NCBI GenBank assembly: GCA_038211045.1
Contig: JBBQWA010000001.1
Coordinates: forward strand, 1-51,831
DNA: 51,831 nucleotides
Reading direction: 5' to 3'
Source: Gemmatales bacterium
Lineage (GTDB): Bacteria; Planctomycetota; Planctomycetia; Gemmatales; Gemmataceae
Shown: piece by piece, positions 10,193 to 21,777 of the stretch
Position numbering within the stretch: the first letter of the stretch is position 1
Layout: every line of letters starts with the position of its first letter
The notes under the pieces: model-generated
Databases searched by the model: none
What the model saw: the letters and a program-made list of their open reading frames with translations, nothing else
Told to the model about the DNA's origin: nothing
Translations under genes and position numbers: made by a program

Positions 10193-11842
10193 TCACTCCG
10201 ATAGTGGAATCCGCATCACGAACTCCGTGCCCCGGCCCACGCCGCCGTTCACGATCACATCGCCGCCGTGTTCCCGCAGTGTCTTGCGGCTGACGGGCAA
10301 ACCCAATCCGGTGCCTTTGCCGCCTTTCGTACTCACGAACGGCTTGAAGATTTCTTCCCGCTTGCCCGGCGGGATGCCGGGGCCATTATCTTCCACGGCG
10401 ATCTCGGCGAACCCTTCGACGCGCCGCACGCTCACCGTCACGCGGGGAACTTCCTCATCTTCCACGGCGTCCACGGCGTTGCTCACGATGTTCAACAGTG
10501 CCCGGTGGATGCCATCGGCATCGCACGAAACCGGCCCGAGTTCGGGAAACGCCCGAAATTCCAGTACCACACCGGCCCCGGCGGCGCGGCCGCGAATCAC
10601 ATCCAACACCTCGTTCGCCAAGCCGTTCAAGTCGGTGCTCTCGAACGCCGGTTCGCGCTCCTTGGAGAAGCTGAGCATGTCGAGAATCAGATCGTCGATC
10701 TTCGCTTGGTTCTTTTCCACGAGCCGCCAGCCCTTGGTAAGCAACTCGGCATCGAGGGAAGGCAGGCCCATGCGAACCATGTCGGAACCGAAGCGCACAC
10801 CCTGCATAATGTTCTTGATGTGATGCGATAATGCCGCGATGGTTTGCCCGATGGCCGCGAGGCGCTCGGCTTGCAGCATGCCTTGGTAGTAGCGGTTTTC
10901 TTCGATTGCGAGCGCCGCTTGGTGAGCCACGGCCACGGCCAAGCGCAGGTGATCCTCGGTGAACTTCACCGGATCGCGGCCGCCGGTCGATTTCGCCGTG
11001 GGGGCTTGCGTATCGAGGAAGAGCACGCCGACGGTATCGTGTCGGCCGCGCATCGGTACGCAGATCACCTCGCGGATTTGATGCTTGGCGATGCTCACGC
11101 CGCCGCGGAAGCGTTCGTCCACCGCGGCATCCGAAACCAGAACGCCCTGCTTATGTTCCAACACATGTTCGACCACGGTTCGGCTGATGTTCAACTCCCC
11201 CTCGGCGTTCTTCCCCCGGCTGCGCATCGCTTTGGGGGTGAGTTCGCCCGTTTCCGGATCGAGCAGCACGGCGCAACCGTGATCCCCTTCGGTGCATTTC
11301 AACACGAGATCGACGATGCGAACGAGCAGCTCCTCGACATCCAGAATATCGCTCACCGCATTCGAGGCTTCGTACATCACGGCGAGATTGGCCAACCGCT
11401 GCCGCAGGTACTCCGTTCCGGCTTGTTCGGGGTTGGCGAGAAATCGGCTGCCCTCCTCGGCGGGAACGCTCCGCAAGATGGCCGTGGCGTAATTCGGATC
11501 GGATTGCAGTACAAAGCTCGCCGTATCAAGCGTGTTCGGCGGCAGGATGTTGGTATCGTCGGTGGCGAAGAGGAAGACGGTATCGCCGACTTGGATGCGA
11601 TCGCTGTTCTTGAGGATCGCGTTGGTAGCGATGCGATCGTTCAACAGCGTGCCGTTGCCGCTGCCGAGATCGGCGAGGGTGACGGAACCATCTTTGACGA
11701 CGAGTTCGCAGTGCTTGCGGGAAGCCCGCGCATCGTCAATGGAAATCGCATTCGTGGAATGCCTGCCGACAACGGTGGTACCCGGGGCGAGTTCGAATCG
11801 CTTGCCGATGCCCGGCCCGTGAAGGATCACCAATCGCGGCAT
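10193..11842 (-). CDS. Cytoplasmic FHA-GAF-histidine kinase (no adjacent response regulator)
   Basis: N-terminal FHA domain (VVGRHSTNAISIDDARASRKHCELVVKDGSVTLADLGSGNGTLLND). A GAF-like middle region follows. The H-box is LAAIGQTIAALSHHIKNIMQGV. The HATPase N/G boxes are NIVSNAVDAV and DNGPGIPPGKREEIFKPFVSTKGGKGTGLGL. Confidence 0.9.
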   Translation of the reverse strand: MPRLVILHGPGIGKRFELAPGTTVVGRHSTNAISIDDARASRKHCELVVKDGSVTLADLGSGNGTLLNDRIATNAILKNSDRIQVGDTVFLFATDDTNILPPNTLDTASFVLQSDPNYATAILRSVPAEEGSRFLANPEQAGTEYLRQRLANLAVMYEASNAVSDILDVEELLVRIVDLVLKCTEGDHGCAVLLDPETGELTPKAMRSRGKNAEGELNISRTVVEHVLEHKQGVLVSDAAVDERFRGGVSIAKHQIREVICVPMRGRHDTVGVLFLDTQAPTAKSTGGRDPVKFTEDHLRLAVAVAHQAALAIEENRYYQGMLQAERLAAIGQTIAALSHHIKNIMQGVRFGSDMVRMGLPSLDAELLTKGWRLVEKNQAKIDDLILDMLSFSKEREPAFESTDLNGLANEVLDVIRGRAAGAGVVLEFRAFPELGPVSCDADGIHRALLNIVSNAVDAVEDEEVPRVTVSVRRVEGFAEIAVEDNGPGIPPGKREEIFKPFVSTKGGKGTGLGLPVSRKTLREHGGDVIVNGGVGRGTEFVMRIPLSE

Positions 11843-11852
11843 GTGTTACCTA

Positions 11853-12488
11853 TCATGAAATCGCAATTCCCAGGTGTTGTCGGCGGCTCACCGAAAATCG
11901 ATTGTCGAGGTACTTCGCAATGGCAGCAACCAGAATTTGCTCGGCTTGCTCTTGGGAATACTGAAGTTCTTCGACCAACTCTTTTGCACGCCCGGTGATG
12001 GCATTGGAGATGAGTTCTTTGCACAATGCATAATCCTTGACCGATGCTCCGCTTTTTGCTGGCTTGTAGGTATGAACGGACTTCAGCATTTTCGCAATCA
12101 TCGCGTTGGTCGATAAATCCGAATCTCGGATGAAGTCGAGGAAAACCGCATTGAAATAGCCATCTCCGAACTCTCGAGTGGCTTTGCGAAGAGCGGTACG
12201 CAGTCCGAGCGAAAATCGCATCGTTTCTTGTTCAACGTTTGCCGCTCGAATCTTGAAACGGATCAAACCGTTGTTCAAGTCGTCGTCCCATGAGACCGTT
12301 TCCTGAAGGGTGGCCAACCCTTTTTGCTCGAAGGACAACCGCATCTCCGGAAGTGTGGTTCCGAATGTGGTTTCCGGATTGTAAATCTCGAGAACCGCAG
12401 TACTTCCCCGATCCAATTGTTGCTTCCACGGTCGCAAACGCGGATCCGTCAGATCTTGCTTTGAACCGAAAAATGCTTGAATGGACAT
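11853..12488 (-). CDS. Hypothetical protein, no domain recognised
   Basis: 211 aa from MSIQAFFGSK; an alternative ATG at 12536 would overlap the upstream gene by 26 nt. The sequence is non-repetitive and protein-like, with no TM segment. It is visibly more A/T-rich than its flanks. It lies 22 nt after the nucleosidase gene and 10 nt before the FHA-kinase gene. Confidence 0.6.
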   Translation of the reverse strand: MSIQAFFGSKQDLTDPRLRPWKQQLDRGSTAVLEIYNPETTFGTTLPEMRLSFEQKGLATLQETVSWDDDLNNGLIRFKIRAANVEQETMRFSLGLRTALRKATREFGDGYFNAVFLDFIRDSDLSTNAMIAKMLKSVHTYKPAKSGASVKDYALCKELISNAITGRAKELVEELQYSQEQAEQILVAAIAKYLDNRFSVSRRQHLGIAIS

Positions 12489-12510
12489 GCGGGTTCCTTT
12501 CGCAGATCTG

Positions 12511-13380
12511 TTATTCCGATTGCTCGTCCCAAGCATCCATCAATAGGGATCGCAAGACGAAGTCGGCCGCATTTCTGCAGGCAAGCAACCTGTACGCATC
12601 GGAATCGCCGCTCCGATTACCGTCCGCGAAATCCGAAATCCCTTTTACTATACACCAAACCGGTTCGCCGTGTGCGCTCGATGCGGCCAGCAACCCGACT
12701 CCTTCCATTTCCCCTCCAACGATTTCCTCGGAACCGCGTGGCACATGGCGAACCAACTCATCGCGAAACCGCATGCTGCCAATCAGGGCCGCTCCGGAAA
12801 GCACGGCGCCGAAATGCAACCCATAATCACCGCGGCACTTCAGCCCTATGCGCTTGAACAATCCGACGAGGCTTTCGCTGGCTTCTTCGTGAATCGCCCT
12901 GGAATAGTCGGTAAAATAACTTTCCCCGAACAATCGTCTCGAAACGAGGGATCGTTTAATCGCTTTCACTTCGCGTGTGTCGTAATGCACGATTGCCGTC
13001 GAAACCAAGACATCGCCCGGCGATTGCATTTCAGGGTCGATTCCGAAAGCCATCCCCAACTGCACGATCCCTTGTGCCCCCGTCGCCACCCTCAATCGCA
13101 TCCCGCGCGCCGCTGTTCCCAAGTAGCCCGACGCACCCATTACGATGCGACCTTGGATTCTCGGGGGGCTGAATGCGATCACGATTTCGTTTCCAACTCT
13201 GCCGAACCAAAGATATTCCTCACCGAATGGCGATACTTTCCGCTTGATCGTTTCGTACTTGATTCCGAGTGAGTCTGCAGCCGACTTCAAGCCTTGTTCT
13301 TCGGTGGGAGTTGCCAAGAACAGAATCAAGGAACAATCATTCTTGTTTTCGATCTTTGTGGACGAAGTATCTTGATCCAT
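12511..13380 (-). CDS. PNP_UDP_1-fold (MTAN/purine nucleoside phosphorylase-like) nucleosidase
   Basis: Only the last 289 codons of ORF-track entry 12511..14217 are credible, starting at the ATG at 13380 (MDQDTSSTKIENK). Family hallmarks are present: EIVGGEMEGVGL (the EME motif) and WCIVKGISDFADG (the (R/K)xISD catalytic-Asp motif). There is also an N-terminal beta-strand, SLILFLATPTEEQG. Confidence 0.8.
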   Translation of the reverse strand: MDQDTSSTKIENKNDCSLILFLATPTEEQGLKSAADSLGIKYETIKRKVSPFGEEYLWFGRVGNEIVIAFSPPRIQGRIVMGASGYLGTAARGMRLRVATGAQGIVQLGMAFGIDPEMQSPGDVLVSTAIVHYDTREVKAIKRSLVSRRLFGESYFTDYSRAIHEEASESLVGLFKRIGLKCRGDYGLHFGAVLSGAALIGSMRFRDELVRHVPRGSEEIVGGEMEGVGLLAASSAHGEPVWCIVKGISDFADGNRSGDSDAYRLLACRNAADFVLRSLLMDAWDEQSE

Positions 13381-13421: not shown

Positions 13422-14351
13422 CTACCTCTTCTTCTCCGGAAGGAACTGGTGCAATTCTAGCCCGTTGGGGCCGAGGTAATCGTCCAAGAGTTCGATTCGC
13501 CCGCGCACGGCGACGAGTGCCAGCAGTTTGCCGATCTCTTCGCGCCACACCGTGGCCAGCCAATCGGGGTTCCCGGCGCGTTGCCGTTGATACTGTTCGA
13601 GGCGGGCGAGGAAGGCCGCGGCTTCCGCGGTGGCCAGCGAAACCCGTTCGTTCCGATACGATTCGGCCTCGGCCGAGCGGCGGAACTTCGCGGTGTTCGC
13701 CTCGTTCGCTTGGCGCTCGGCTTCCTGCGATGCTTGGTTCGTTCGCGTTCGGATGGCGGTTTGAGCCTGATTCACCGCCTCGAAGGAATCGCGCACCTCC
13801 TCCGGGGCGGCCAAGGATTCCACGGCGATTCGTTCGACGGTGATGCCGAGATTCTGGCCGGCGATTCGCTCGGGTAATCGGTCGAAGATCCATTGCGTGA
13901 GCGCCGTGCGGCCGCCGAGGGCGCGATCGACCGTGTGCGAACCGAGCCATTCCGCGGCGAGGGCTTCCGTCTCGCGTCGCAGCGCCGGTTCCACTTGATC
14001 CTTGTGAACGACGTAGTTTTCCAGTGCGGCCTCTTCGATGGCGTATTCCACGATCAATCGCGTGTTCAACAGATTTTGATCGCCGGTGAGGAACTGCCCG
14101 GAAGGCGTGAACAGCGCCTCGAAGGATTCCTCTGGGAGTACGCCGACGGCGAGTTGCTTGACGATCCGCACCCGTACGCGGTCGATGCGGTCGATGCCCC
14201 AAGGCAAGCCGATCCATAGCCCCGGCCCCGGCTTGGCCACCACGCGGCCGAACCGCCGAACCACGGCTCGTTCCTCCGGCCCCACTTGGGCGATGCCCGT
14301 GAGCAGGTAGGCGGTGACCGCGATGAACAGCAGGTAGCGGAAGCGGATCAT
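13422..14351 (-). CDS. SPFH/band-7 membrane protein, HflK-like
   Basis: Start MIRFRYLLFIAVTAYLLTGIAQV (TM helix), followed by VGPEERAVVRRFGRVVAKPGPGLWIGLPWGIDRI and a long coiled-coil tail. The ATG overlaps the upstream stop (ATGA at 14348-14351). Confidence 0.85.
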   Translation of the reverse strand: MIRFRYLLFIAVTAYLLTGIAQVGPEERAVVRRFGRVVAKPGPGLWIGLPWGIDRIDRVRVRIVKQLAVGVLPEESFEALFTPSGQFLTGDQNLLNTRLIVEYAIEEAALENYVVHKDQVEPALRRETEALAAEWLGSHTVDRALGGRTALTQWIFDRLPERIAGQNLGITVERIAVESLAAPEEVRDSFEAVNQAQTAIRTRTNQASQEAERQANEANTAKFRRSAEAESYRNERVSLATAEAAAFLARLEQYQRQRAGNPDWLATVWREEIGKLLALVAVRGRIELLDDYLGPNGLELHQFLPEKKR

Positions 14352-15283
14352 TTCCCCGCCTTCGGAGGCTCTCGCAAAAGTTTGAACAAGTCGTGGTTCA
14401 GCGAGAGGAGCAGGATATCCCGGCTCTCGCTGAGCGCGGTTTGCATCGCCTTGAGCTTCTGGAGGAAGGCGTAGAATTCCGGGTCTTTCGCGTGGGCTTC
14501 GTTGCGGAGTTGATCGGCCGTCACGTCCGCTTTGCTTTCGATCAATTGTTTCTCGGCCTTCGCATCCACTTCGACCCGGCGGCGATCCTGTTCTGCCTTC
14601 GTGATGATCTCGGCGGCCTGCTTGCGGCCATCGTTCTCGTACTCCGCCACCTTGCGGCCCCGTTCGGAACGAATGCGCTCGTAGATACTGTTCCGCACCG
14701 CCTCGGGGTAACTTAATCGGCGGATGCGCAGCGTGACGATTTCCACCCCGTACTCGGCGAGCACTTTCGCTTTCAAATCGTCGCCGAGCAATTGTTGTTG
14801 GAGCTTCTCCGCGCGGGCATCCGCTTCCGCGATCGGCTTCACCGAAATGAGTTCCTCCAGCGTGAGGCCGCTGACCACCGCCGCGATGCGACCACCGATG
14901 CGCGGCGCGAGGATCCGTTTCACCTGATCCGGCGTACCCGCGGCTTTGATGAACCGATCGGCGGCGGCCGCGTTCGGGATGCGCCACGTGATGAACGCAT
15001 CCACGGTGAGCGTCTTATCGACGGTGCCGGTGGCGGGATCTTTGGTGAGGCTTTCGGTCGCGGGCAGGTCGAACGATTGCAAACGCCGGTCGATGCGCAG
15101 CACGTTATCGATGGGCCACGGCAGCTTGAAGTGCAACCCGGCTTCGGTGGCACCATCGTACTTGGCCACCGGTTCACCGAACCGCGTGACGAAGGCGAAC
15201 TCGGCGTAATCGACGCTGTAGCAGGCCGTGCGCGCCCACAGCAACCCGAGAATGGCAATCGGAACGTATGCGAATCGGTTCAA
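14348..15283 (-). CDS. SPFH/band-7 membrane protein, HflC-like
   Basis: The TM helix FAYVPIAILGLLWARTA is followed by SVDYAEFAFVTRFGEPVAKYDG...GLHFKLPWPIDNV. The only start that retains the TM helix is the TTG at 15283, which overlaps the upstream TGA (TTGA) and has GGAGA 7 nt upstream. Confidence 0.8.
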   Translation of the reverse strand: MNRFAYVPIAILGLLWARTACYSVDYAEFAFVTRFGEPVAKYDGATEAGLHFKLPWPIDNVLRIDRRLQSFDLPATESLTKDPATGTVDKTLTVDAFITWRIPNAAAADRFIKAAGTPDQVKRILAPRIGGRIAAVVSGLTLEELISVKPIAEADARAEKLQQQLLGDDLKAKVLAEYGVEIVTLRIRRLSYPEAVRNSIYERIRSERGRKVAEYENDGRKQAAEIITKAEQDRRRVEVDAKAEKQLIESKADVTADQLRNEAHAKDPEFYAFLQKLKAMQTALSESRDILLLSLNHDLFKLLREPPKAGK

Positions 15284-18200
15284 CGTGATTCTCCAGTTGG
15301 CACCGCGAGCGGTGGCACTCTCGGCATCAATTCCGGATCGAGCAAATACAGCTTGCGCGTGCCGGGGAGCTTGTCCGCATCGATCAAAATCTTGTCCCGG
15401 GATTTCAGCACGGCCGTGATGGCTTCCAAGCCCAAGCGGAACTCGGTCAACCGTCGGCGTTCGGCCAACATCGCGGTGCGTCGGGCGTCCGCTTCCGCCG
15501 ACGGGAGTTTCTTCAACCCGGCCTCCTCGGCGTCGCTCAATGTAGTGCGGGCCGCTTGCCAATGCAGGATACCATCGCGGGCCGCCGTGGCTTCCCGCAC
15601 CTTCTGATGGGCGTCCGCCTCGGCGGTGCGGATCGTGCGTAGGGCCACTTCCTGCGAACGGGTGCGGATGCGACTCGCCTCGGCCAGCGACTCGTTCACC
15701 AGTTTATCCCGTTTCTGAATCGCCTCCGCCACGGCATGGTACTCGGCCACCACCGATTGCGGCGGATGGAGATCGTGAATCGTGAGGCCTTCCAAACGAA
15801 TCCCCAAACCATCGGGGGCGGCTTCGCTCAACCGTTCGCCGAGCTTGGCCTCAGCCGCCCGCTCGAACTCGGCGCGGCCCGCCGCCAACAGCGTTTGGAA
15901 TGGCCGTGCGGCCACGAGTTCGCGCAACACCGATTCCGCGGCACTGCGGATTGTCGCATCCGTATCTTTGTTTCCCAAAAGAAACCGCCGCGGATCGCGC
16001 ACTGTGAATCGCACGGTGGCCAGAACTTCGAGCAAGTCGCCATCGCCGGTGAGCATCAAGCTCTCATCGGTGAGCCGGGTGCTCCCTTCGGAATGGGCGC
16101 TGCCCCACGTCGCGCCCGCTTCGCCCGATTTTTGGCCGGGCAGTTTCAACTTCTCTTGTTCGATTTTCGCAACGCGGAGTTCGTTCCACTTCTCTTCGGG
16201 AAGCACGCGGAAGCCGAGTTCGACCGTGCGAATCTCGGCGGGTTTCACACGGAGGATGCTTTCCACGGGCCACGGCCAGCGGTAGTGCAACCCCGGTGCG
16301 AGTTCGTTGCGAACGTCGCCGAAGCGTTGTACGATTCCCACTTCGGCCACTTCGATTTGTGCGAAGCCCGAAGCCAACCAAAGGAGTACCCCCGCCAACG
16401 CTCCCGCTCCGAGCACGCGTTGCCAATGGTGGCCCGCCGTGTGAAGCCAATCGTCGAGGTGGACGGTGTTCATCCAACGATCGAAATCGCGGTAGCGCCG
16501 TTTCAAGCCATCGGTGTGCGGAGAGCTGCGCTCGAAGCCCAGCAAACGCATCGAATTCAACAGCACCGCGAGGGAACCGATCTGGTGGTAGATCGCACCG
16601 GCGAGCGGGGCTTTCTCGAACCAACCCGGGCTACCGGCAAAAAGCGGCCAGAGGAATCCGGTGAGTAGCACGCCGATCAGATTGACGCCGAAGCCGAACC
16701 AAACGATGTTCTGGCGGATCACCTTGGTGGTTTCCCGGCTCAATCGCACCAACAGCGGCAGCGGTCGCAGCGGTTCGCCCATCATTACGATGTCGCCCGC
16801 TTCGGCGGCGATATCGGTTCCCGTGCCGATGGCGATTCCCACTCGCGCCGAGGCGAGTGCCGGAGCATCGTTCGCACCGTCGCCCACGAATGCGGCGTTG
16901 AGGTCGTTCAGCTTCGCGGCTTTCTCGGCGGGGAGCAACCCAGCGTGCAACTCCATTTCCGGGAGGTTCGCCGCAATGGCATTCACCACGCTCGCACGAT
17001 CGCCACTGAGCAACAAGATCGGGGTGATGCCCAACGATCGCAATTCCGAAAGGACTCCCGCCGCCTCGGGGCGGACGCGATCCCGCGTACCGATGGCTCC
17101 GACGATGGTTCGATTCTTCGCTACGAGGAGTGCCGTTTGCCCGAGCGCATCGAACTCGGCGATCCAGCCATCGACATCCGTGGAGATGGGAATGCCGCGT
17201 TCGATCATCAGCGTGCGGTTGCCGATGAGCACGGGCGAACCTTCGATGGTCGCCGCGAGGCCGCGGCCGGGGAATGCCTGAAATTCTGTGGCTTCCGGCA
17301 AGTTCACACCGCGTTGCTTCGCTCCGTGCAGAATCGCCGAGGCGAGGGGGTGTTCGCTTTTGGCTTCCGCCGCAGCCGCGATGCGCAGCAGTTCCTCCGC
17401 AGATGTTCCCGCAGCGGTTCGCATCTCGCCGAGTTCGATTTTCCCTTCGGTGAGGGTGCCGGTTTTATCGAAGGCGAATGCGGATACCTGAGACAATCGT
17501 TCGAGCGATGCACCGCTTTTGATGAGGATGCCGGTACCCGCCAATCGCCCCAACGCGGCGATCACCGCTGCGGGCGTGGCCAACACCAACGGGCAAGGGC
17601 AAGCGACGACCAGCACCGCCAACGTGGGGTACATCGCCACGCGGGCCATCGCGGCGAAGCCCAACTTCTTCGCATCCGGGGTGGCTCCCCATTGTTGAAA
17701 GCCGATGTTCATTAAAAAGGTGAAGAGAGCGAGCAGCAGCACCAATGGTAGGAAATACCGTGCAAGGCGATCCGCTTGCCGTTCGCCAACGGACTTCTCT
17801 CGGATCGCTTTCGCCGTGAGTTCGATCATCTGCCCGGCCACGGTACTCCGCTGGACTTGCCGGGCTTCCACCGTCAGCGAACCGTGCGGGATGAGGCTGC
17901 CCGCGAGCACGGCATCGCCGGGGGATTTCTCCACGGGTTGGCTTTCGCCCGTGAGCGAACTTGTATCCACGGCGGCCGTGCCTTCGATCACGATGCCATC
18001 GATGGGAATCTTTCCGCCGGGCTTGATGCGTACGAGGTCGCCGATCCGCACATCTTCGGTTAGGGTTCGAATTTCTTGCCCGTCGCGGAGTACCCAACAG
18101 CGCTGGGGGAAGAGCGTGTTCAGATTGACGAGCGAGCGTTGCGTGCGGTCGAAGGTGAAGGCTTCCAAGCATTCGCCCACAAGGCCGATCACCACCACTT

Positions 18201-18534
18201 CGGCCGCCACGAGTGGCTCGCCGAGGAGAATCGCGGCGATGCAAGCGACGGCGATGGCCAAATCGGCCCCGAGTTTTCCTTCGGACAGGTGTTCGAGCGA
18301 TCCGTAGAGGGCGCGGGCACCGCCGAGCACGGCGGCGAGGAGCGCGTAGCGCATGCCGAGGAGATCGCGCTTCTCCCAAGTCGGAGTCGGGGCGCCCTGA
18401 TCAGTGAGCCAACGTGCGAACAACGGCCAAAGGTCGGCGACGAGCAGGAACAGCAGTAGCCCGGTGAAAGAATAGAGGCCGAGGTTCGACCGCGTGCGGA
18501 AAGGGCTTTCTTGTGGCTCGAATGAACGGTGCAT
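15280..18534 (-). CDS. P1B-type (CPC) heavy-metal P-type ATPase fused in frame to a C-terminal SPFH/HflK-like domain
   Basis: 1084 aa from MHRSFEPQ. ATPase motifs: SLTGESQP, ACPCPLVLATP, FDKTGTLT, SEHPLASAI and VGDGANDAPALA. There is no HMA domain. From about 16422 downward comes an extra TM helix (VLGAGALAGVLLWLASGF), then IEVAEVGIVQRFGDVRNELAPGLHYRWPWPVESI (SPFH) and a coiled-coil tail. There is no stop codon between the two modules. Confidence 0.85.
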   Translation of the reverse strand: MHRSFEPQESPFRTRSNLGLYSFTGLLLFLLVADLWPLFARWLTDQGAPTPTWEKRDLLGMRYALLAAVLGGARALYGSLEHLSEGKLGADLAIAVACIAAILLGEPLVAAEVVVIGLVGECLEAFTFDRTQRSLVNLNTLFPQRCWVLRDGQEIRTLTEDVRIGDLVRIKPGGKIPIDGIVIEGTAAVDTSSLTGESQPVEKSPGDAVLAGSLIPHGSLTVEARQVQRSTVAGQMIELTAKAIREKSVGERQADRLARYFLPLVLLLALFTFLMNIGFQQWGATPDAKKLGFAAMARVAMYPTLAVLVVACPCPLVLATPAAVIAALGRLAGTGILIKSGASLERLSQVSAFAFDKTGTLTEGKIELGEMRTAAGTSAEELLRIAAAAEAKSEHPLASAILHGAKQRGVNLPEATEFQAFPGRGLAATIEGSPVLIGNRTLMIERGIPISTDVDGWIAEFDALGQTALLVAKNRTIVGAIGTRDRVRPEAAGVLSELRSLGITPILLLSGDRASVVNAIAANLPEMELHAGLLPAEKAAKLNDLNAAFVGDGANDAPALASARVGIAIGTGTDIAAEAGDIVMMGEPLRPLPLLVRLSRETTKVIRQNIVWFGFGVNLIGVLLTGFLWPLFAGSPGWFEKAPLAGAIYHQIGSLAVLLNSMRLLGFERSSPHTDGLKRRYRDFDRWMNTVHLDDWLHTAGHHWQRVLGAGALAGVLLWLASGFAQIEVAEVGIVQRFGDVRNELAPGLHYRWPWPVESILRVKPAEIRTVELGFRVLPEEKWNELRVAKIEQEKLKLPGQKSGEAGATWGSAHSEGSTRLTDESLMLTGDGDLLEVLATVRFTVRDPRRFLLGNKDTDATIRSAAESVLRELVAARPFQTLLAAGRAEFERAAEAKLGERLSEAAPDGLGIRLEGLTIHDLHPPQSVVAEYHAVAEAIQKRDKLVNESLAEASRIRTRSQEVALRTIRTAEADAHQKVREATAARDGILHWQAARTTLSDAEEAGLKKLPSAEADARRTAMLAERRRLTEFRLGLEAITAVLKSRDKILIDADKLPGTRKLYLLDPELMPRVPPLAVPTGESR

Positions 18535-18655
18535 GGGAGATTCCGGCACCGGGGGAAAAGAACCGAGGGGTGCCGTCAGGCTATCGGTTGAAGGGTGGGC
18601 GTCAAGCGAACGGGCGGGCGTGATATAATTGCGGTGCACCCACGGGGAACTGCCG

Positions 18656-19405
18656 ATGCCGATCCACAACTGGAAAAAAGTCGATGCGGGGATCTTCCAC
18701 GATTTCCATCAACGCTGGTGTATCACCATCGGCGATGCGTTGAATGCCGCATTGCCGCCGGATCATTACGCGTTGATCGAACAAAGCTTAGTGAAAGATG
18801 ACCGGGGCCGTTTCGGCCCGGATGTTCTCACGCTGCACACCGGCGGCGATGGATCAACTCCTTTTGAAGGTTCCGGCGGTACCGCATTGCTCGCCCCGGC
18901 GCCCAAATTGGCCAACGTTGTGTTTTCGGACGCCGAGTACTACCGCCGAAAGAAGAACGTGATCGCAATACGACACGTCAGCGACGACCGCATCGTGGCG
19001 TCGATCGAGTTGGTTTCGCCGGGGAACAAATCGGGGAACCGGGCGGTTGCCGATTTCGTGACGAAAGCGTGCGAGCTGTTGATCCGCGGCATCCATCTAA
19101 TGATCGTCGATCTGTTTCCACCCACGCCGCGAGTTCCGATGGGTATTCAAGCCGCGATTTGGATGGAACTGGAAGAGGAAGAGGCCGAGCCGTTGCCGGA
19201 GGGGAAGGATCGTGTGGCGGTGAGTTACGAGTGCCTTGATGGCGGTGTTCGCGGGTATGTGGAACCGATCGGCTTGGGGGAACCGCTGCCCGATATGCCG
19301 ATCTTCCTCCGGCCCGACGGCTGCGTGATGGTGCCGCTGGAAAAAACGTATTCCTCGGCTTTCTCGACGGTACCCGCACGGTGGCGCCGGGTGATCGAAG
19401 ATTGA
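18656..19405 (+). CDS. DUF4058-family protein
   Basis: The N-terminus is MPIHNWKKVDAGIFHDFHQRW. The core IELVSPGNKSG...GIHLMIVDLFPP resembles the IEILSPxNK...EIDLL signature of DUF4058. Confidence 0.7.
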   Translation: MPIHNWKKVDAGIFHDFHQRWCITIGDALNAALPPDHYALIEQSLVKDDRGRFGPDVLTLHTGGDGSTPFEGSGGTALLAPAPKLANVVFSDAEYYRRKKNVIAIRHVSDDRIVASIELVSPGNKSGNRAVADFVTKACELLIRGIHLMIVDLFPPTPRVPMGIQAAIWMELEEEEAEPLPEGKDRVAVSYECLDGGVRGYVEPIGLGEPLPDMPIFLRPDGCVMVPLEKTYSSAFSTVPARWRRVIED

Positions 19406-19458
19406 ATTCGTGATCGATATGGACTCAAGGTCGAACTGTACTGAAGGCGAACGGAACC

Positions 19459-21777
19459 ATGAACGAAACTCTTCCCCCGGCCCCGCACCCGGAACCCGCG
19501 GCGGGCATGGGCGCCCTCTGGTCGAGCTTCAAACACATCGTGCAGAATCGCGGCGTTCTCCGCAACGTGCGATCGCTCTTCCGGGTGAATCAACCCGATG
19601 GTTTCGATTGCCCCGGCTGCGCCTGGCCCGATCCGAAAGAGGCATCCAAGCTAGGCGAATACTGCGAGAACGGCGTGAAAGCCGTGGCCTTCGAGACGAC
19701 CGCCAAACGGGTGACGCCCGAGTTCTTCGCCGCGCATTCCGTCGGCTGGTTGCGGCAACAGACCGGTCACTGGCTGGAAAATCAAGGGCGGCTCACGCAC
19801 CCGATGAAGTACAACCGAGCGAGCGACCGTTACGAAGCCATCGCATGGGAAGAGGCGTTCGCCCTCATCGGAACGCATTTGAAATCGTTGAAATCCCCGG
19901 GCGACGCGATCTTCTACACCTCCGGGCGAACCGGCAACGAAGCGGCGTTCCTCTACCAACTCTTCGCCCGCCGCTTCGGCACGAACAACTTGCCCGATTG
20001 TTCGAACATGTGCCACGAGAGCAGTGGCGCCGCCATGCTGCCCACACTCGGCGTGGGCAAAGGCACCGTCACGCTCGAGGATTTCGAGCACGCGGAGGCC
20101 ATCTTCGTGATCGGACAGAACCCCGGCACCAACCACCCGCGCATGCTCACCGAACTCGAGAATGCTTCCAAGCGCGGAGCGAAGATCGTCACGTTCAACC
20201 CGCTGCGCGAACCGGGCTTGGTGAGCTTCACCCACCCGAAGCACCCCCTGAGTACCCTGCTGCAGCGCGGCACGCCGATCAGCACCCACTACTACCAAGT
20301 GCAAATCGGCGGCGACCTCGCGGCCCTCACCGGGATGTGCAAGTATCTGTTGGAAGAACGTGGCGATTGTTTGGATCGGGCTTTCATCGCCTCGGAAACT
20401 GCCGGGTTCGATGCGTTTGAACAATCCATGAAAGCCGCGGATTGGGCCACCATTGAAGTGCAATCGGGTTTGAGCCGAACGCAGTTGGTCGAAGCCGCGG
20501 AAGTGTACGCAAAGGCGAAGAGCACGATCATCTGCTGGGCGATGGGCCTCACGCAACACAAACACGCGGTGGCCACCATTCAAATGGTGGTGAATCTGTT
20601 GCTCCTCTGCGGCAACATCGGCCGTGCGGGTGCGGGCGCTTGCCCGGTGCGCGGGCACTCGAATGTGCAGGGGGATCGCACCATGGGAATCGTCGAACGC
20701 CCGAGCGCGGCGTTCAACGAATCGCTGCACCGGGTGTTCGGGTTTGAACCGCCGCAGCACCACGGGCACGATGTTGTGGGGGCGATCAACGCGATGGCCG
20801 AAGGCCCCGGCAAGGTGTTCCTCGGCTTGGGGGGGAACTTCGCCGCGGCCACGCCCGATACCGAATTCACAGAAAAAGCCTTGGAACGCTGCGAACTCAC
20901 GGTTCACATCAGCACCAAATTGAATCGCAGCCACCTCGTGATGGGAAAGCAGGCCCTCATTCTGCCGTGCCTCGGCCGAAGCGAAATCGATGTGCAAGCG
21001 ACCGGCCCGCAGAAGGTAACCGTCGAAGATTCGATGAGCATGGTTCATGCCTCGCAGGGGAAGAACCCACCCGCTTCGGAACATTTGAAATCCGAAGTCG
21101 CCATCGTTTGCGGCATCGCCGAGGCGGTATTCTCACCCTCTCTCCTCGAAGGAGAGGGTGGCGGTGAGCGGAGCGAAATGCGGGGAGAGGGGGAAATCGA
21201 GTGGGGGGAGTTTCAGAACGATTACCGCATCATCCGGGCCAAGATCGCGGAGACGCTACCCGCGTTGTTTGAGAATTACGAAGAACGCCTGAACGTTCCG
21301 GGCGGCTTCTACCTCGGCAACTCGGCCCGCGATCGCCGATGGGCAACGCCCAACGCTAAGGCGAATTTCACCCCCCACGCGATCGCGGATCTCACCCTCC
21401 CACCCGGGCAATTGCGATTGATGACGATCCGCAGCCACGATCAGTTCAACACCACGGTGTACGACCTGAACGACCGTTACCGCGGCATCCACGGTACCCG
21501 CATGGTGATCTTCCTCCATGCGCAAGACATCGCGGAACGCGGATTGAAGGAAGGCGATACGGTCACGCTGACGAGCCACACGAAGGAAGACGGGTTGGCG
21601 CGTTCGGCCCCCGGTTTCCGCGTCGTGGCGTACGACATCCCCATCGGCTGCTCGGCCGCGTACTTCCCGGAAACGAACGGTTTGGTATCGAAGGATTCGT
21701 TCGCGGAGGTGAGCCGCACGCCGCTCTCGAAGTTCATCCCGATCACGGTGGCGAAGTCGCCGAGCGCGCTTGGCTAA
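19459..21777 (+). CDS. FdhF/YdeP-family molybdopterin oxidoreductase
   Basis: 772 aa. The N-terminal sequence FRVNQPDGFDCPGCAWPDPKE...YCENGVKAVAFE is characteristic of YdeP-like enzymes. Molybdopterin-binding and C-terminal barrel regions are present. Confidence 0.9.
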   Translation: MNETLPPAPHPEPAAGMGALWSSFKHIVQNRGVLRNVRSLFRVNQPDGFDCPGCAWPDPKEASKLGEYCENGVKAVAFETTAKRVTPEFFAAHSVGWLRQQTGHWLENQGRLTHPMKYNRASDRYEAIAWEEAFALIGTHLKSLKSPGDAIFYTSGRTGNEAAFLYQLFARRFGTNNLPDCSNMCHESSGAAMLPTLGVGKGTVTLEDFEHAEAIFVIGQNPGTNHPRMLTELENASKRGAKIVTFNPLREPGLVSFTHPKHPLSTLLQRGTPISTHYYQVQIGGDLAALTGMCKYLLEERGDCLDRAFIASETAGFDAFEQSMKAADWATIEVQSGLSRTQLVEAAEVYAKAKSTIICWAMGLTQHKHAVATIQMVVNLLLLCGNIGRAGAGACPVRGHSNVQGDRTMGIVERPSAAFNESLHRVFGFEPPQHHGHDVVGAINAMAEGPGKVFLGLGGNFAAATPDTEFTEKALERCELTVHISTKLNRSHLVMGKQALILPCLGRSEIDVQATGPQKVTVEDSMSMVHASQGKNPPASEHLKSEVAIVCGIAEAVFSPSLLEGEGGGERSEMRGEGEIEWGEFQNDYRIIRAKIAETLPALFENYEERLNVPGGFYLGNSARDRRWATPNAKANFTPHAIADLTLPPGQLRLMTIRSHDQFNTTVYDLNDRYRGIHGTRMVIFLHAQDIAERGLKEGDTVTLTSHTKEDGLARSAPGFRVVAYDIPIGCSAAYFPETNGLVSKDSFAEVSRTPLSKFIPITVAKSPSALG
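21132..21193. repeat. Imperfect palindromic G/C-rich element lying in frame inside the YdeP-family gene
   Basis: The sequence ctcaccctctctcc-tcgaa-ggagagggtggcggtgag is followed by ggggagaggggg. It encodes SPSLLEGEGGGERSEMRGEGE. The 11-mer accctctctcc recurs in the intergenic region at 8451. Confidence 0.6.

Follow-up and report, generated by a model that had tools for sequence, protein, structure and literature searches.

We have analyzed a stretch of 51,831 nucleotides (the window) from contig JBBQWA010000001.1 of a Gemmatales bacterium of the family Gemmataceae (assembly GCA_038211045.1), with emphasis on three adjacent genes on its minus strand. The first of these (15280..18534) encodes a P1B-type ATPase that continues, through a linker and an additional transmembrane (TM) helix, into an HflK-like SPFH module, here called K1. 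It is followed by genes for two stand-alone SPFH proteins, the HflC-like product of open reading frame (ORF) 2 in position 2 (14348..15283) and a second HflK-like protein, K2, encoded by ORF3 in position 3 (13422..14351). We consider it probable, with moderate confidence, that this locus encodes a P1B pump for a divalent, most likely Zn2+-like metal that is built into its own HflK/HflC-type SPFH scaffold. As this SPFH trio is found beside metal transporters in several bacterial phyla, the analysis suggests a hitherto undescribed scaffold devoted to metal transport.

The fused gene, whose assignment draws on its ORF, Pfam, TIGR01525, homologues and an AlphaFold2 (AF2) model with a pLDDT of 77.7, lies in a minus-strand frame that is open from 18669 to 15280. 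The ATG at 18534, which gives a product of 1084 amino acids, was taken as the start because the N-terminus that it provides, MHR-x-F...PF, is kept across 120 homologues of the fused protein. Residues M1, H2, R3, P11 and F12 of this segment (codons 1-11, 18502-18534) are invariant or nearly so in 35-120 fusions, and the segment may be a minimal metal-binding or regulatory motif of this HMA-less pump. Pfam places the E1-E2_ATPase domain at residues 141-332 (E 1.2e-48), the HAD hydrolase domain at 351-563 (E 5.9e-25) and Band_7 at 726-952 (E 1.6e-17), and detects no HMA domain in the protein.

The ATPase module (residues 1-668, 16531..18534) is joined to the rest of the protein by a basic, Arg/Lys-rich linker (residues 669-703, 16426..16530), in which AF2 predicts helices at 672-690 and 693-702. 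The ninth TM helix follows (residues 704-721, 16372..16425); it is indicated by hydropathy and AF2 and matches the TM region 79-100 of E. coli HflK. Both linker and ninth helix are conserved among the homologues. The remainder of the protein (residues 722-1084, 15283..16371) consists of the SPFH domain and a coiled-coil tail. The only solved structures matched by this C-terminal module are the HflK chains 7vhp and 7vhq (E 1e-16). Its alignment with E. coli HflK extends from the TM helix of HflK itself through the first long helix and leaves ~48-50 residues of the module without an HflK counterpart, in an insertion (residues 772-822, 16069..16221) that ends with W810-G-S-A-H814 (16093-16107). 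Past the ninth helix the AF2 model contains an SPFH domain at 724-923, with the insert at low confidence, then a helix of 72 residues (926-997), a further helix (1012-1045) and a disordered tail, and this layout of TM helix, SPFH domain and long helices is the one expected of an HflK/C-type cage subunit. Because P-type ATPases end in the cytoplasm and the ninth helix crosses the membrane, we infer that the linker is cytoplasmic and that the SPFH/coiled-coil part is periplasmic, which is the orientation of HflK.

The two downstream proteins resemble HflC and HflK in turn. ORF2 (311 amino acids, TTG start, Band_7 E 4.7e-25) is a near miss to the HflC model TIGR01932, with 125.2 bits over profile positions 9-317 of 318 and a cut-off of 134.4. 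ORF3 (309 amino acids, Band_7 E 1.1e-16) has HflK as its best named NCBIfam match, and scores 117 bits with TIGR01933 (cut-off 159.4); the fused module scores 115.5 bits with the same model. All three are SPFH proteins, with PF01145 scores of 64.5, 89.1 and 61.8 bits for the fused protein, ORF2 and ORF3, respectively (gathering threshold 23.6). The start of each downstream gene overlaps the preceding stop by 4 nt, in TTGA at 15283-15280 (fused gene and ORF2) and in ATGA at 14351-14348 (ORF2 and ORF3), and the same overlaps recur in orthologous operons; orthologs of ORF2 are found in our loci L005-L009. The three SPFH modules are only 23-39% identical to each other over partial alignments and, by this measure, are old paralogs. 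The insertion ending in WxxxH is missing from ORF3, and there is no other SPFH gene in the window. An earlier note on this DNA, made from the sequence alone, had described an uninterrupted frame of 1084 codons joining a complete CPC-type P-type ATPase without N-terminal HMA domain to an extra TM helix, an SPFH domain and a coiled-coil tail, followed by HflC-like and HflK-like paralogs with start codons overlapping the preceding stops. This description was borne out in full by the open frame, the Pfam domains, the alignment to HflK and the AF2 helices, with the qualification that the best models for the two paralogs, which agree with it, are matched below their equivalog cut-offs.

The fusion is found well beyond the window. 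A cluster search covering 5.8 billion proteins found it intact in more than 120 clusters; the best 120 show 53-99% identity, all are full length (1023-1163 amino acids) and all carry the three Pfam domains. In addition, one genome per species was scanned with a profile of the C-terminal alignment, a scan with Gemmataceae-level reach that gave 96 relatives. Among the best 80 of these, ATPase and SPFH parts are continuous in all of the 78 loci that keep upstream sequence; L027 and L077 start inside the match and are outside this count. The union of the two parts, for which the earlier note had called for a survey of orthologs, is present in each of these 120 clusters and 78 loci. Almost all of the 80 loci belong to Gemmataceae (Fimbriiglobus, Limnoglobus, Gemmata, Frigoriglobus and Urbifossiella), and the isolates that carry the fusion include Fimbriiglobus ruber and, more distantly, Telmatocola sphagniphila. 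The same single ORF occurs in independent assemblies from NCBI, JGI, ENA and Logan. With the C-terminal module as query, an exhaustive HMMER search added more full-length fusions to an ATPase; these reach as low as 28% identity and belong to Abditibacteriota, Ca. Sumerlaeota and other Planctomycetota. Five fusions of the Gemmataceae type (L021, L030, L043, L092 and L047) are in metagenome-assembled genomes titled 'uncultured Alcaligenaceae bacterium' or 'Bacteroidales bacterium'; these records are probably mislabelled or mis-binned.

The pump module has eight TM helices and A, P and N domains, as judged by Pfam, Foldseek and matches to solved P1B ATPases. The motifs quoted in the earlier note were all located: TGES (17941-17952), the CPC metal-site motif of TM6 (M4; C312-P313-C314, 17593..17601) with ACPCPLVLATP around it, DKTGT (17455-17469), SEHP (17347-17358) and GDGANDAP (16861-16884). 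With these motifs and a TIGR01525 score of 523 bits (cut-off 346) the module belongs to the P1B family. Foldseek gave its model target-normalised TM-scores of 0.82 for ZntA (4umw) and 0.81 for sCoaT (7qbz), and the CopA fold was matched as well. In TM8 (M6) the motif H650-Q-I-G-S654 (16573..16587), aligned with E. coli CopA, ZntA and the ATPases of the unfused operons described below, puts a His at the ligand position occupied by Met in CopA and by Asp in ZntA. C312, P313, C314, Q608, N609, N618, H650, Q651, S654 and N660 are invariant in 35 fusions, and HQ is found in M6 of 116 of the 120 close homologues.

The pump conforms to neither of two CPC classes, P1B-1 (Cu+/Ag+: CPC, YN in M5, MxxSS in M6) and P1B-2 (ZntA-type: CPC, Lys in M5, DxG in M6). 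It scores 371 with the copper model TIGR01511 (cut-off 397), has no YN in M5 and carries HQIGS where CopA has MALSS; likewise the M6 Asp of P1B-2 is replaced by His and the M5 Lys is absent. The broader IB2_Cd subfamily model TIGR01512 is passed with 393.9 bits (cut-off 313.5). In the published scheme P1B-4 and P1B-6 pumps have SPC and SCA in M4, respectively, and HEGxT or HNx[ST] in M6 (PMC13460109). HQIGS aligns with the HNxST of the unfused operons, but M4 is CPC and the second M6 residue is Q rather than N or E, so that by sequence the fused pump looks like a distinct CPC + HQxGS variant. Its substrate is probably a divalent transition metal rather than Cu+, since the IB2_Cd cut-off is passed and the copper cut-off is not, M6 has a His, and YN and MxxSS are absent; the predicted Cys2-His site, the alternative transporter partner and the His-rich pumps of unfused operons (both described below) make a Zn-like metal the most likely one. 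The database label 'Cu+-exporting ATPase' is doubtful, since neither the P1B-1 signature nor the TIGR01511 cut-off is reached. Export is the general behaviour of P1B ATPases and of cation diffusion facilitators (CDF), and from this we infer transport from the cytoplasm to the periplasm. In P0229, a distant metagenomic fusion of ATPase and SPFH, M4 reads CSC in place of CPC; CSC has been attributed to the poorly understood P1B-7 subgroup (PMC13460109).

The SPFH trio is also found with other metal transporters. Among the 150 best matches of the C-terminal module in 1.84 billion representatives there was only one architecture besides ATPase fusions and their fragments, namely a Cation_efflux (CDF) domain followed by Band_7 in proteins of 570-620 amino acids, annotated merely as 'HflK'. 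In all three contexts that could be read, two Band_7 genes of ~300 amino acids, mostly overlapping, follow the CDF fusion; two Band_7 genes likewise follow a distant ATPase fusion. The CDF part of one of these proteins (L008) has HxxxD in both TM2 and TM5, and HxxxD/HxxxD in a CDF constitutes a Zn-type site.

A third arrangement, found via ORF2, occurs in Proteobacteria. A Klebsiella aerogenes plasmid operon encodes an 'HflK' of 568 amino acids (polytopic N-terminus and Band_7), HflC, another 'HflK' and a P-type ATPase, and unfused operons of overlapping K1, C, K2 and P1B ATPase genes are present in Klebsiella, Rhizobium, Burkholderia and Pseudomonas cichorii. Homologues of the Klebsiella ATPase are chromosomal in many Enterobacterales. 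The ATPases of these operons combine CPC with H-N-x-S-T in M6, and the Klebsiella and Rhizobium copies have a His-rich N-terminus. The proteobacterial K1 proteins (genes at 5085-6791 of L011, 5479-7497 of L093, 5182-7077 of L094 and 7001-8950 of L095) begin with a polytopic domain of 230-300 amino acids that has no Pfam match and sits where the fusions carry their transporter. Homology of this domain to the CDF membrane domain was considered and rejected (hhalign probability 0.5%). An Azospirillum plasmid match (H26) was also set aside as a candidate of this kind; it is an ordinary hflK-hflC-degQ locus and was kept as an outgroup only.

What ties these arrangements together is the insertion in the first SPFH module. 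WxxxH is found in 118 of 120 close fusions, 26 of 28 distant ATPase fusions, 8 of 10 CDF fusions and 120 of 120 proteobacterial K1 proteins, with a chance expectation of ~0.05 per protein by a rough estimate from typical Trp and His frequencies; the insertion is absent from the K2 proteins and from the HflK of E. coli and Azospirillum. Since position-1 modules share an insertion that is missing in K2 and canonical HflK, they appear to be orthologous across the transporter arrangements. In a simple neighbour-joining (NJ) tree position 2 groups with HflC and positions 1 and 3 with HflK, and the ATPase-fused and CDF-fused modules are intermixed. Given this grouping and the marker common to all types of K1, the unit is, as far as sequences tell, an old cassette of transporter-linked K1, C and K2 whose transporter has been exchanged or split off. 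We define the cassette as a WxxxH-bearing position-1 SPFH protein joined to or co-encoded with a metal transporter, a C-like SPFH protein and a K-like SPFH protein without the insertion, and the window contains such a set. The suggestion in the earlier note of an SPFH microdomain or cage serving an ion transporter is strongly reinforced by the CDF fusions with their two SPFH genes in three of three cases and by the proteobacterial P1B operons.

A literature search found no paper describing SPFH fused to a P1B ATPase or a CDF. The wider statement of the earlier note, that it knew of no described system of this kind, goes too far: the unfused operon of three SPFH genes and a P1B ATPase is widespread in Proteobacteria and matches the published architecture of PA2435-PA2439 in P. 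aeruginosa. In a znuA mutant PA2435 (HmtA) and PA2437-PA2439 are raised 5.6- to 14.4-fold (PMC4542158, Table 2). PA2437-PA2439 are annotated as HflC and HflK family members, and the cluster is also raised at the protein level under Zn depletion (PMC11761036). The three SPFH proteins are called PaFlo5-7 in a 2026 study, which assigns them to a single operon also present in P. syringae and P. knackmussii, makes no mention of the ATPase, and reports a canonical hfq-hflX-hflK-hflC operon as a second, separate unit in P. aeruginosa (PMC13086221). None of these three papers offers a mechanism for the cluster. Our K1 profile search reached P. cichorii, P. citrulli and P. putida and did not reach P. 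aeruginosa; by gene order and annotation, PA2439-PA2435 would be the counterpart of the P. cichorii/Klebsiella operon.

In the mechanism that we propose, subunits of the fused K1 and of the HflC-like protein would alternate in the manner of HflK and HflC, with free K2 in further K positions; this pairing is suggested by the grouping of position 2 with HflC and of positions 1 and 3 with HflK. The assembly of K1, C and K2 would be a ring or cage at the periplasmic side of the cytoplasmic membrane, with several pumps tethered to it. Such a scaffold would keep the pump in a delimited membrane patch and may stabilise it and control its turnover. As the pump moves metal from cytoplasm to periplasm, the scaffold may also confine the released metal beside the W-x3-H loop specific to K1. 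Both the cage and the stoichiometric co-assembly of its subunits are extrapolated here from homology and from the overlaps between the genes.

Several observations weigh against this proposal. Among 48 Gemmataceae-level loci with at least 2.6 kb of downstream sequence, both C and K2 are kept in 15 and only C in 10, a state confirmed by inspection of L023; the other 23 hold just the fusion, which is also the state of Fimbriiglobus ruber and P0120. With 23 of 48 loci holding only the fusion and 10 only an HflC-like partner, a three-component ring cannot be obligatory. The fusion heading an operon of three SPFH genes, as the earlier note had it, is thus correct for the window but varies within the family. 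The NCBIfam equivalog cut-offs for HflK/HflC are not reached by any of the three SPFH proteins. The window ATPase is 33% identical to the proteobacterial cassette ATPases and 37-39% identical to generic P1B ATPases, the only matches returned when plasmids were searched by tblastn with the whole fusion as query. A specific kinship of fused and cassette pumps was not adopted, as the NJ tree does not resolve the fused clade, ZntA and the cassette clade, and the pump modules may have been recruited independently. Finally, the architecture-matched P. aeruginosa cluster is induced by Zn depletion and HmtA is a reported importer, according to what is cited in PMC10393844 (see also PMC4542158), which conflicts with simple detoxifying efflux.

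This last conflict leads to the alternative that survives best, although we think it a good deal less probable than not: the system could serve high-affinity uptake or metal allocation under limitation, either by import or by passing Zn or Cu in short supply on to clients in the periplasm or membrane. This alternative concerns the direction of transport and is compatible with the scaffold. It would account for the rise of PA2435 and PA2437-PA2439 in the znuA mutant (5.6- to 14.4-fold) and of their products under Zn depletion (PMC4542158, PMC11761036), and for the rise in cellular Zn and Cu upon HmtA overexpression (as cited in PMC10393844); CPC and the M6 His are, moreover, common to cassette and fused ATPases. 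Against it, the importer role is described as awaiting confirmation, and the hmtA promoter was not bound by Zur (PMC10393844). No specific relationship was found between the window ATPase and those of the cassettes, and the link to P. aeruginosa is one of architecture only. Furthermore, the partner that replaces the pump in other loci is a CDF whose HD-HD site is of the Zn type, and CDFs are a family of exporters.

It is unlikely that the SPFH proteins are ordinary HflK/HflC modulators of FtsH. In that reading the fusion would insert the pump into the FtsH-HflK/C quality-control cage, for instance to control its turnover, and the system would centre on FtsH instead of being a scaffold of the transporter's own. 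The best named NCBIfam matches are indeed HflK and HflC, the only structures matched are HflK chains of HflK/C-FtsH, canonical HflK and HflC nest among the cassette proteins in the crude NJ tree, and the window holds no further SPFH gene. The scores of all three proteins nevertheless remain below the equivalog cut-offs, and the position-1 insertion is specific to the clade and missing in HflK. P. aeruginosa has a canonical hfq-hflX-hflK-hflC operon in addition to the three-SPFH one (PMC13086221). Neither Pfam nor record annotation gave an ftsH gene in any locus for which the gene table was examined, and the recurrent partner is always a metal transporter.

Similarly improbable, in our estimation, is a module that acts in cis or as a homo-oligomer, as a regulatory or anchoring tail that clusters pumps, with dispensable neighbours and no closed cage. 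Some SPFH proteins do form homo-oligomers, and the loci with the fusion alone (23 of 48) or with a single partner (10 of 48) are what such a module would predict. The K1-C-K2 order with overlapping genes recurs, on the other hand, in at least four phyla and with three transporter arrangements, and the K-like and C-like identities fit the known hetero-alternating HflK/C design. That the fusion is an assembly error, frameshift or gene-calling artefact joining adjacent genes can for practical purposes be dismissed: high GC does produce many long spurious ORFs in other frames, but no positive support for an artefact was found, independent assemblies including those of the isolates F. ruber and T. 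sphagniphila share the single ORF, and the linker and ninth TM helix are conserved.

The scaffolded pump that we favour admits a more speculative extension, to which we assign only a small chance. K1, C and K2 might build a closed periplasmic vault with up to a dozen pumps tethered to its wall, which would fill the lumen with Zn2+ or a related metal received by the W-x3-H loop. Such a vault would be a nanocompartment for metal loading or sequestration and would give SPFH cages a new physiological role. It would also reconcile export-type transporters with induction by Zn limitation in Pseudomonas, since scarce metal would reach extracytoplasmic clients.

Among bacterial SPFH proteins, FtsH is to our knowledge the one well-defined client. 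Here the client is part of the polypeptide itself through a natural fusion, which identifies the cargo of an HflK/C-type assembly as a metal pump. With CDF fusions and unfused operons in Proteobacteria as well, the pairing is general across phyla rather than a curiosity of one lineage. For structural biology the fusion offers a self-labelled complex, and in P. aeruginosa the pairing of scaffold and pump provides a testable reason for the co-induction of PA2437-PA2439 with HmtA. The findings also argue against the widespread labels 'Cu+-exporting ATPase' and 'FtsH protease modulator HflK' for these proteins.

Several neighbouring genes accompany the cassette in some loci. A gene for an FHA-GAF-HisKA-like-HATPase_c protein (10193..11842, minus strand, Pfam) lies downstream of ORF3 in the window; an FHA-GAF-HATPase_c gene is directly 3' of ORF3 in L005, L006 and L007 and was detected in 5 of the 15 full cassettes among the species loci; its product is a possible regulator of the operon. 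A 182-aa FHA-only protein is encoded just upstream of a very distant cassette (L009, 5871-6419), and the recurrence of FHA beside the cassette may reflect a regulatory link via phospho-threonine signalling. In the window, ORF3 is separated from the FHA-GAF-HATPase_c gene by a two-gene insert on the minus strand (11853-13293). It encodes a 227-aa protein without a family match and a 260-aa PNP_UDP_1-like protein with weak PADLOC matches (PDC-M60C, 1.8e-8; PN-superfamily effector, 8.9e-7). The GC content of the insert is 0.52, compared with ~0.60-0.63 in the flanking DNA, and it looks like a small mobile or defence islet. Divergent from the fused gene are a DUF4058 gene and a gene for a 772-aa molybdopterin oxidoreductase (18629-21777, plus strand), and the same divergent neighbours are found in L005, a relative with 74% identity. 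Some Gemmataceae cassettes have, just upstream of the fusion, a ~222-aa protein with a weak match to YHS, a putative metal-binding domain, and a DUF481 protein (L006 4608-5282; L007 5237-5905 and 4246-5085); both genes are absent from the window. Promoter and terminator scans gave counts equal to shuffle expectation, and the only Rfam match was a tRNA.

The system can be compared with five known ones. It shares with E. coli HflK/HflC-FtsH (PDB 7VHP, 7WI3) the single TM helix, SPFH domain and long coiled-coil helices, as well as K-like and C-like paralogs encoded side by side. It differs in the covalent joining of a K-like subunit to a transporter, an extra second K-like paralog, the ~50-residue WxxxH insertion in K1, the lack of a linked ftsH and the sub-cut-off scores. 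The proteobacterial K1-C-K2-ATPase operons (Klebsiella pYD-K10_1, Rhizobium, Burkholderia and P. cichorii) have the same SPFH order, WxxxH in K1, overlapping genes and, in the same operon, a P1B ATPase of the CPC type whose M6 ligand position is His; there the pump is a separate last gene, K1 has its polytopic N-terminus (~230-300 amino acids), and the ATPase, with HNx[ST] and a His-rich N-terminus, is ~30-33% identical to the window pump. The fusions of CDF and SPFH (Ca. Alcyoniella australis, Ca. Tritonobacter lacicola and metagenomic relatives) share the K1 module with WxxxH, the two downstream SPFH genes and the predicted topology, whereas their transporter is a six-TM CDF domain with HxxxD/HxxxD, is not ATP-driven and has no ZT_dimer by Pfam.

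Dedicated scaffolds co-encoded with P1B ATPases are already known from the PacL-CtpC/G/V 'effluxosomes' of M. tuberculosis, where PacL is needed for pump stability and for clustering in membrane domains, and where the CPC pump CtpC carries a His motif resembling that of P1B-6 (PMC13460109). PacL is, however, a small DUF1490 protein that binds cytoplasmic metal-binding domains; it is neither an SPFH protein nor fused to its pump, and has no periplasmic cage-type architecture. A structural precedent for an SPFH oligomer enclosing transport proteins is provided by the eukaryotic stomatin cages around AQP1 and UT-B (PMC13041759). These associate with their clients non-covalently, and they are homo-oligomers that sit monotopically at the cytoplasmic face. 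Client-bearing SPFH scaffolds and scaffolded P1B pumps are both known kinds of system; the value of the present one lies in a client identified by fusion, and in a link that spans phyla and transporter classes.

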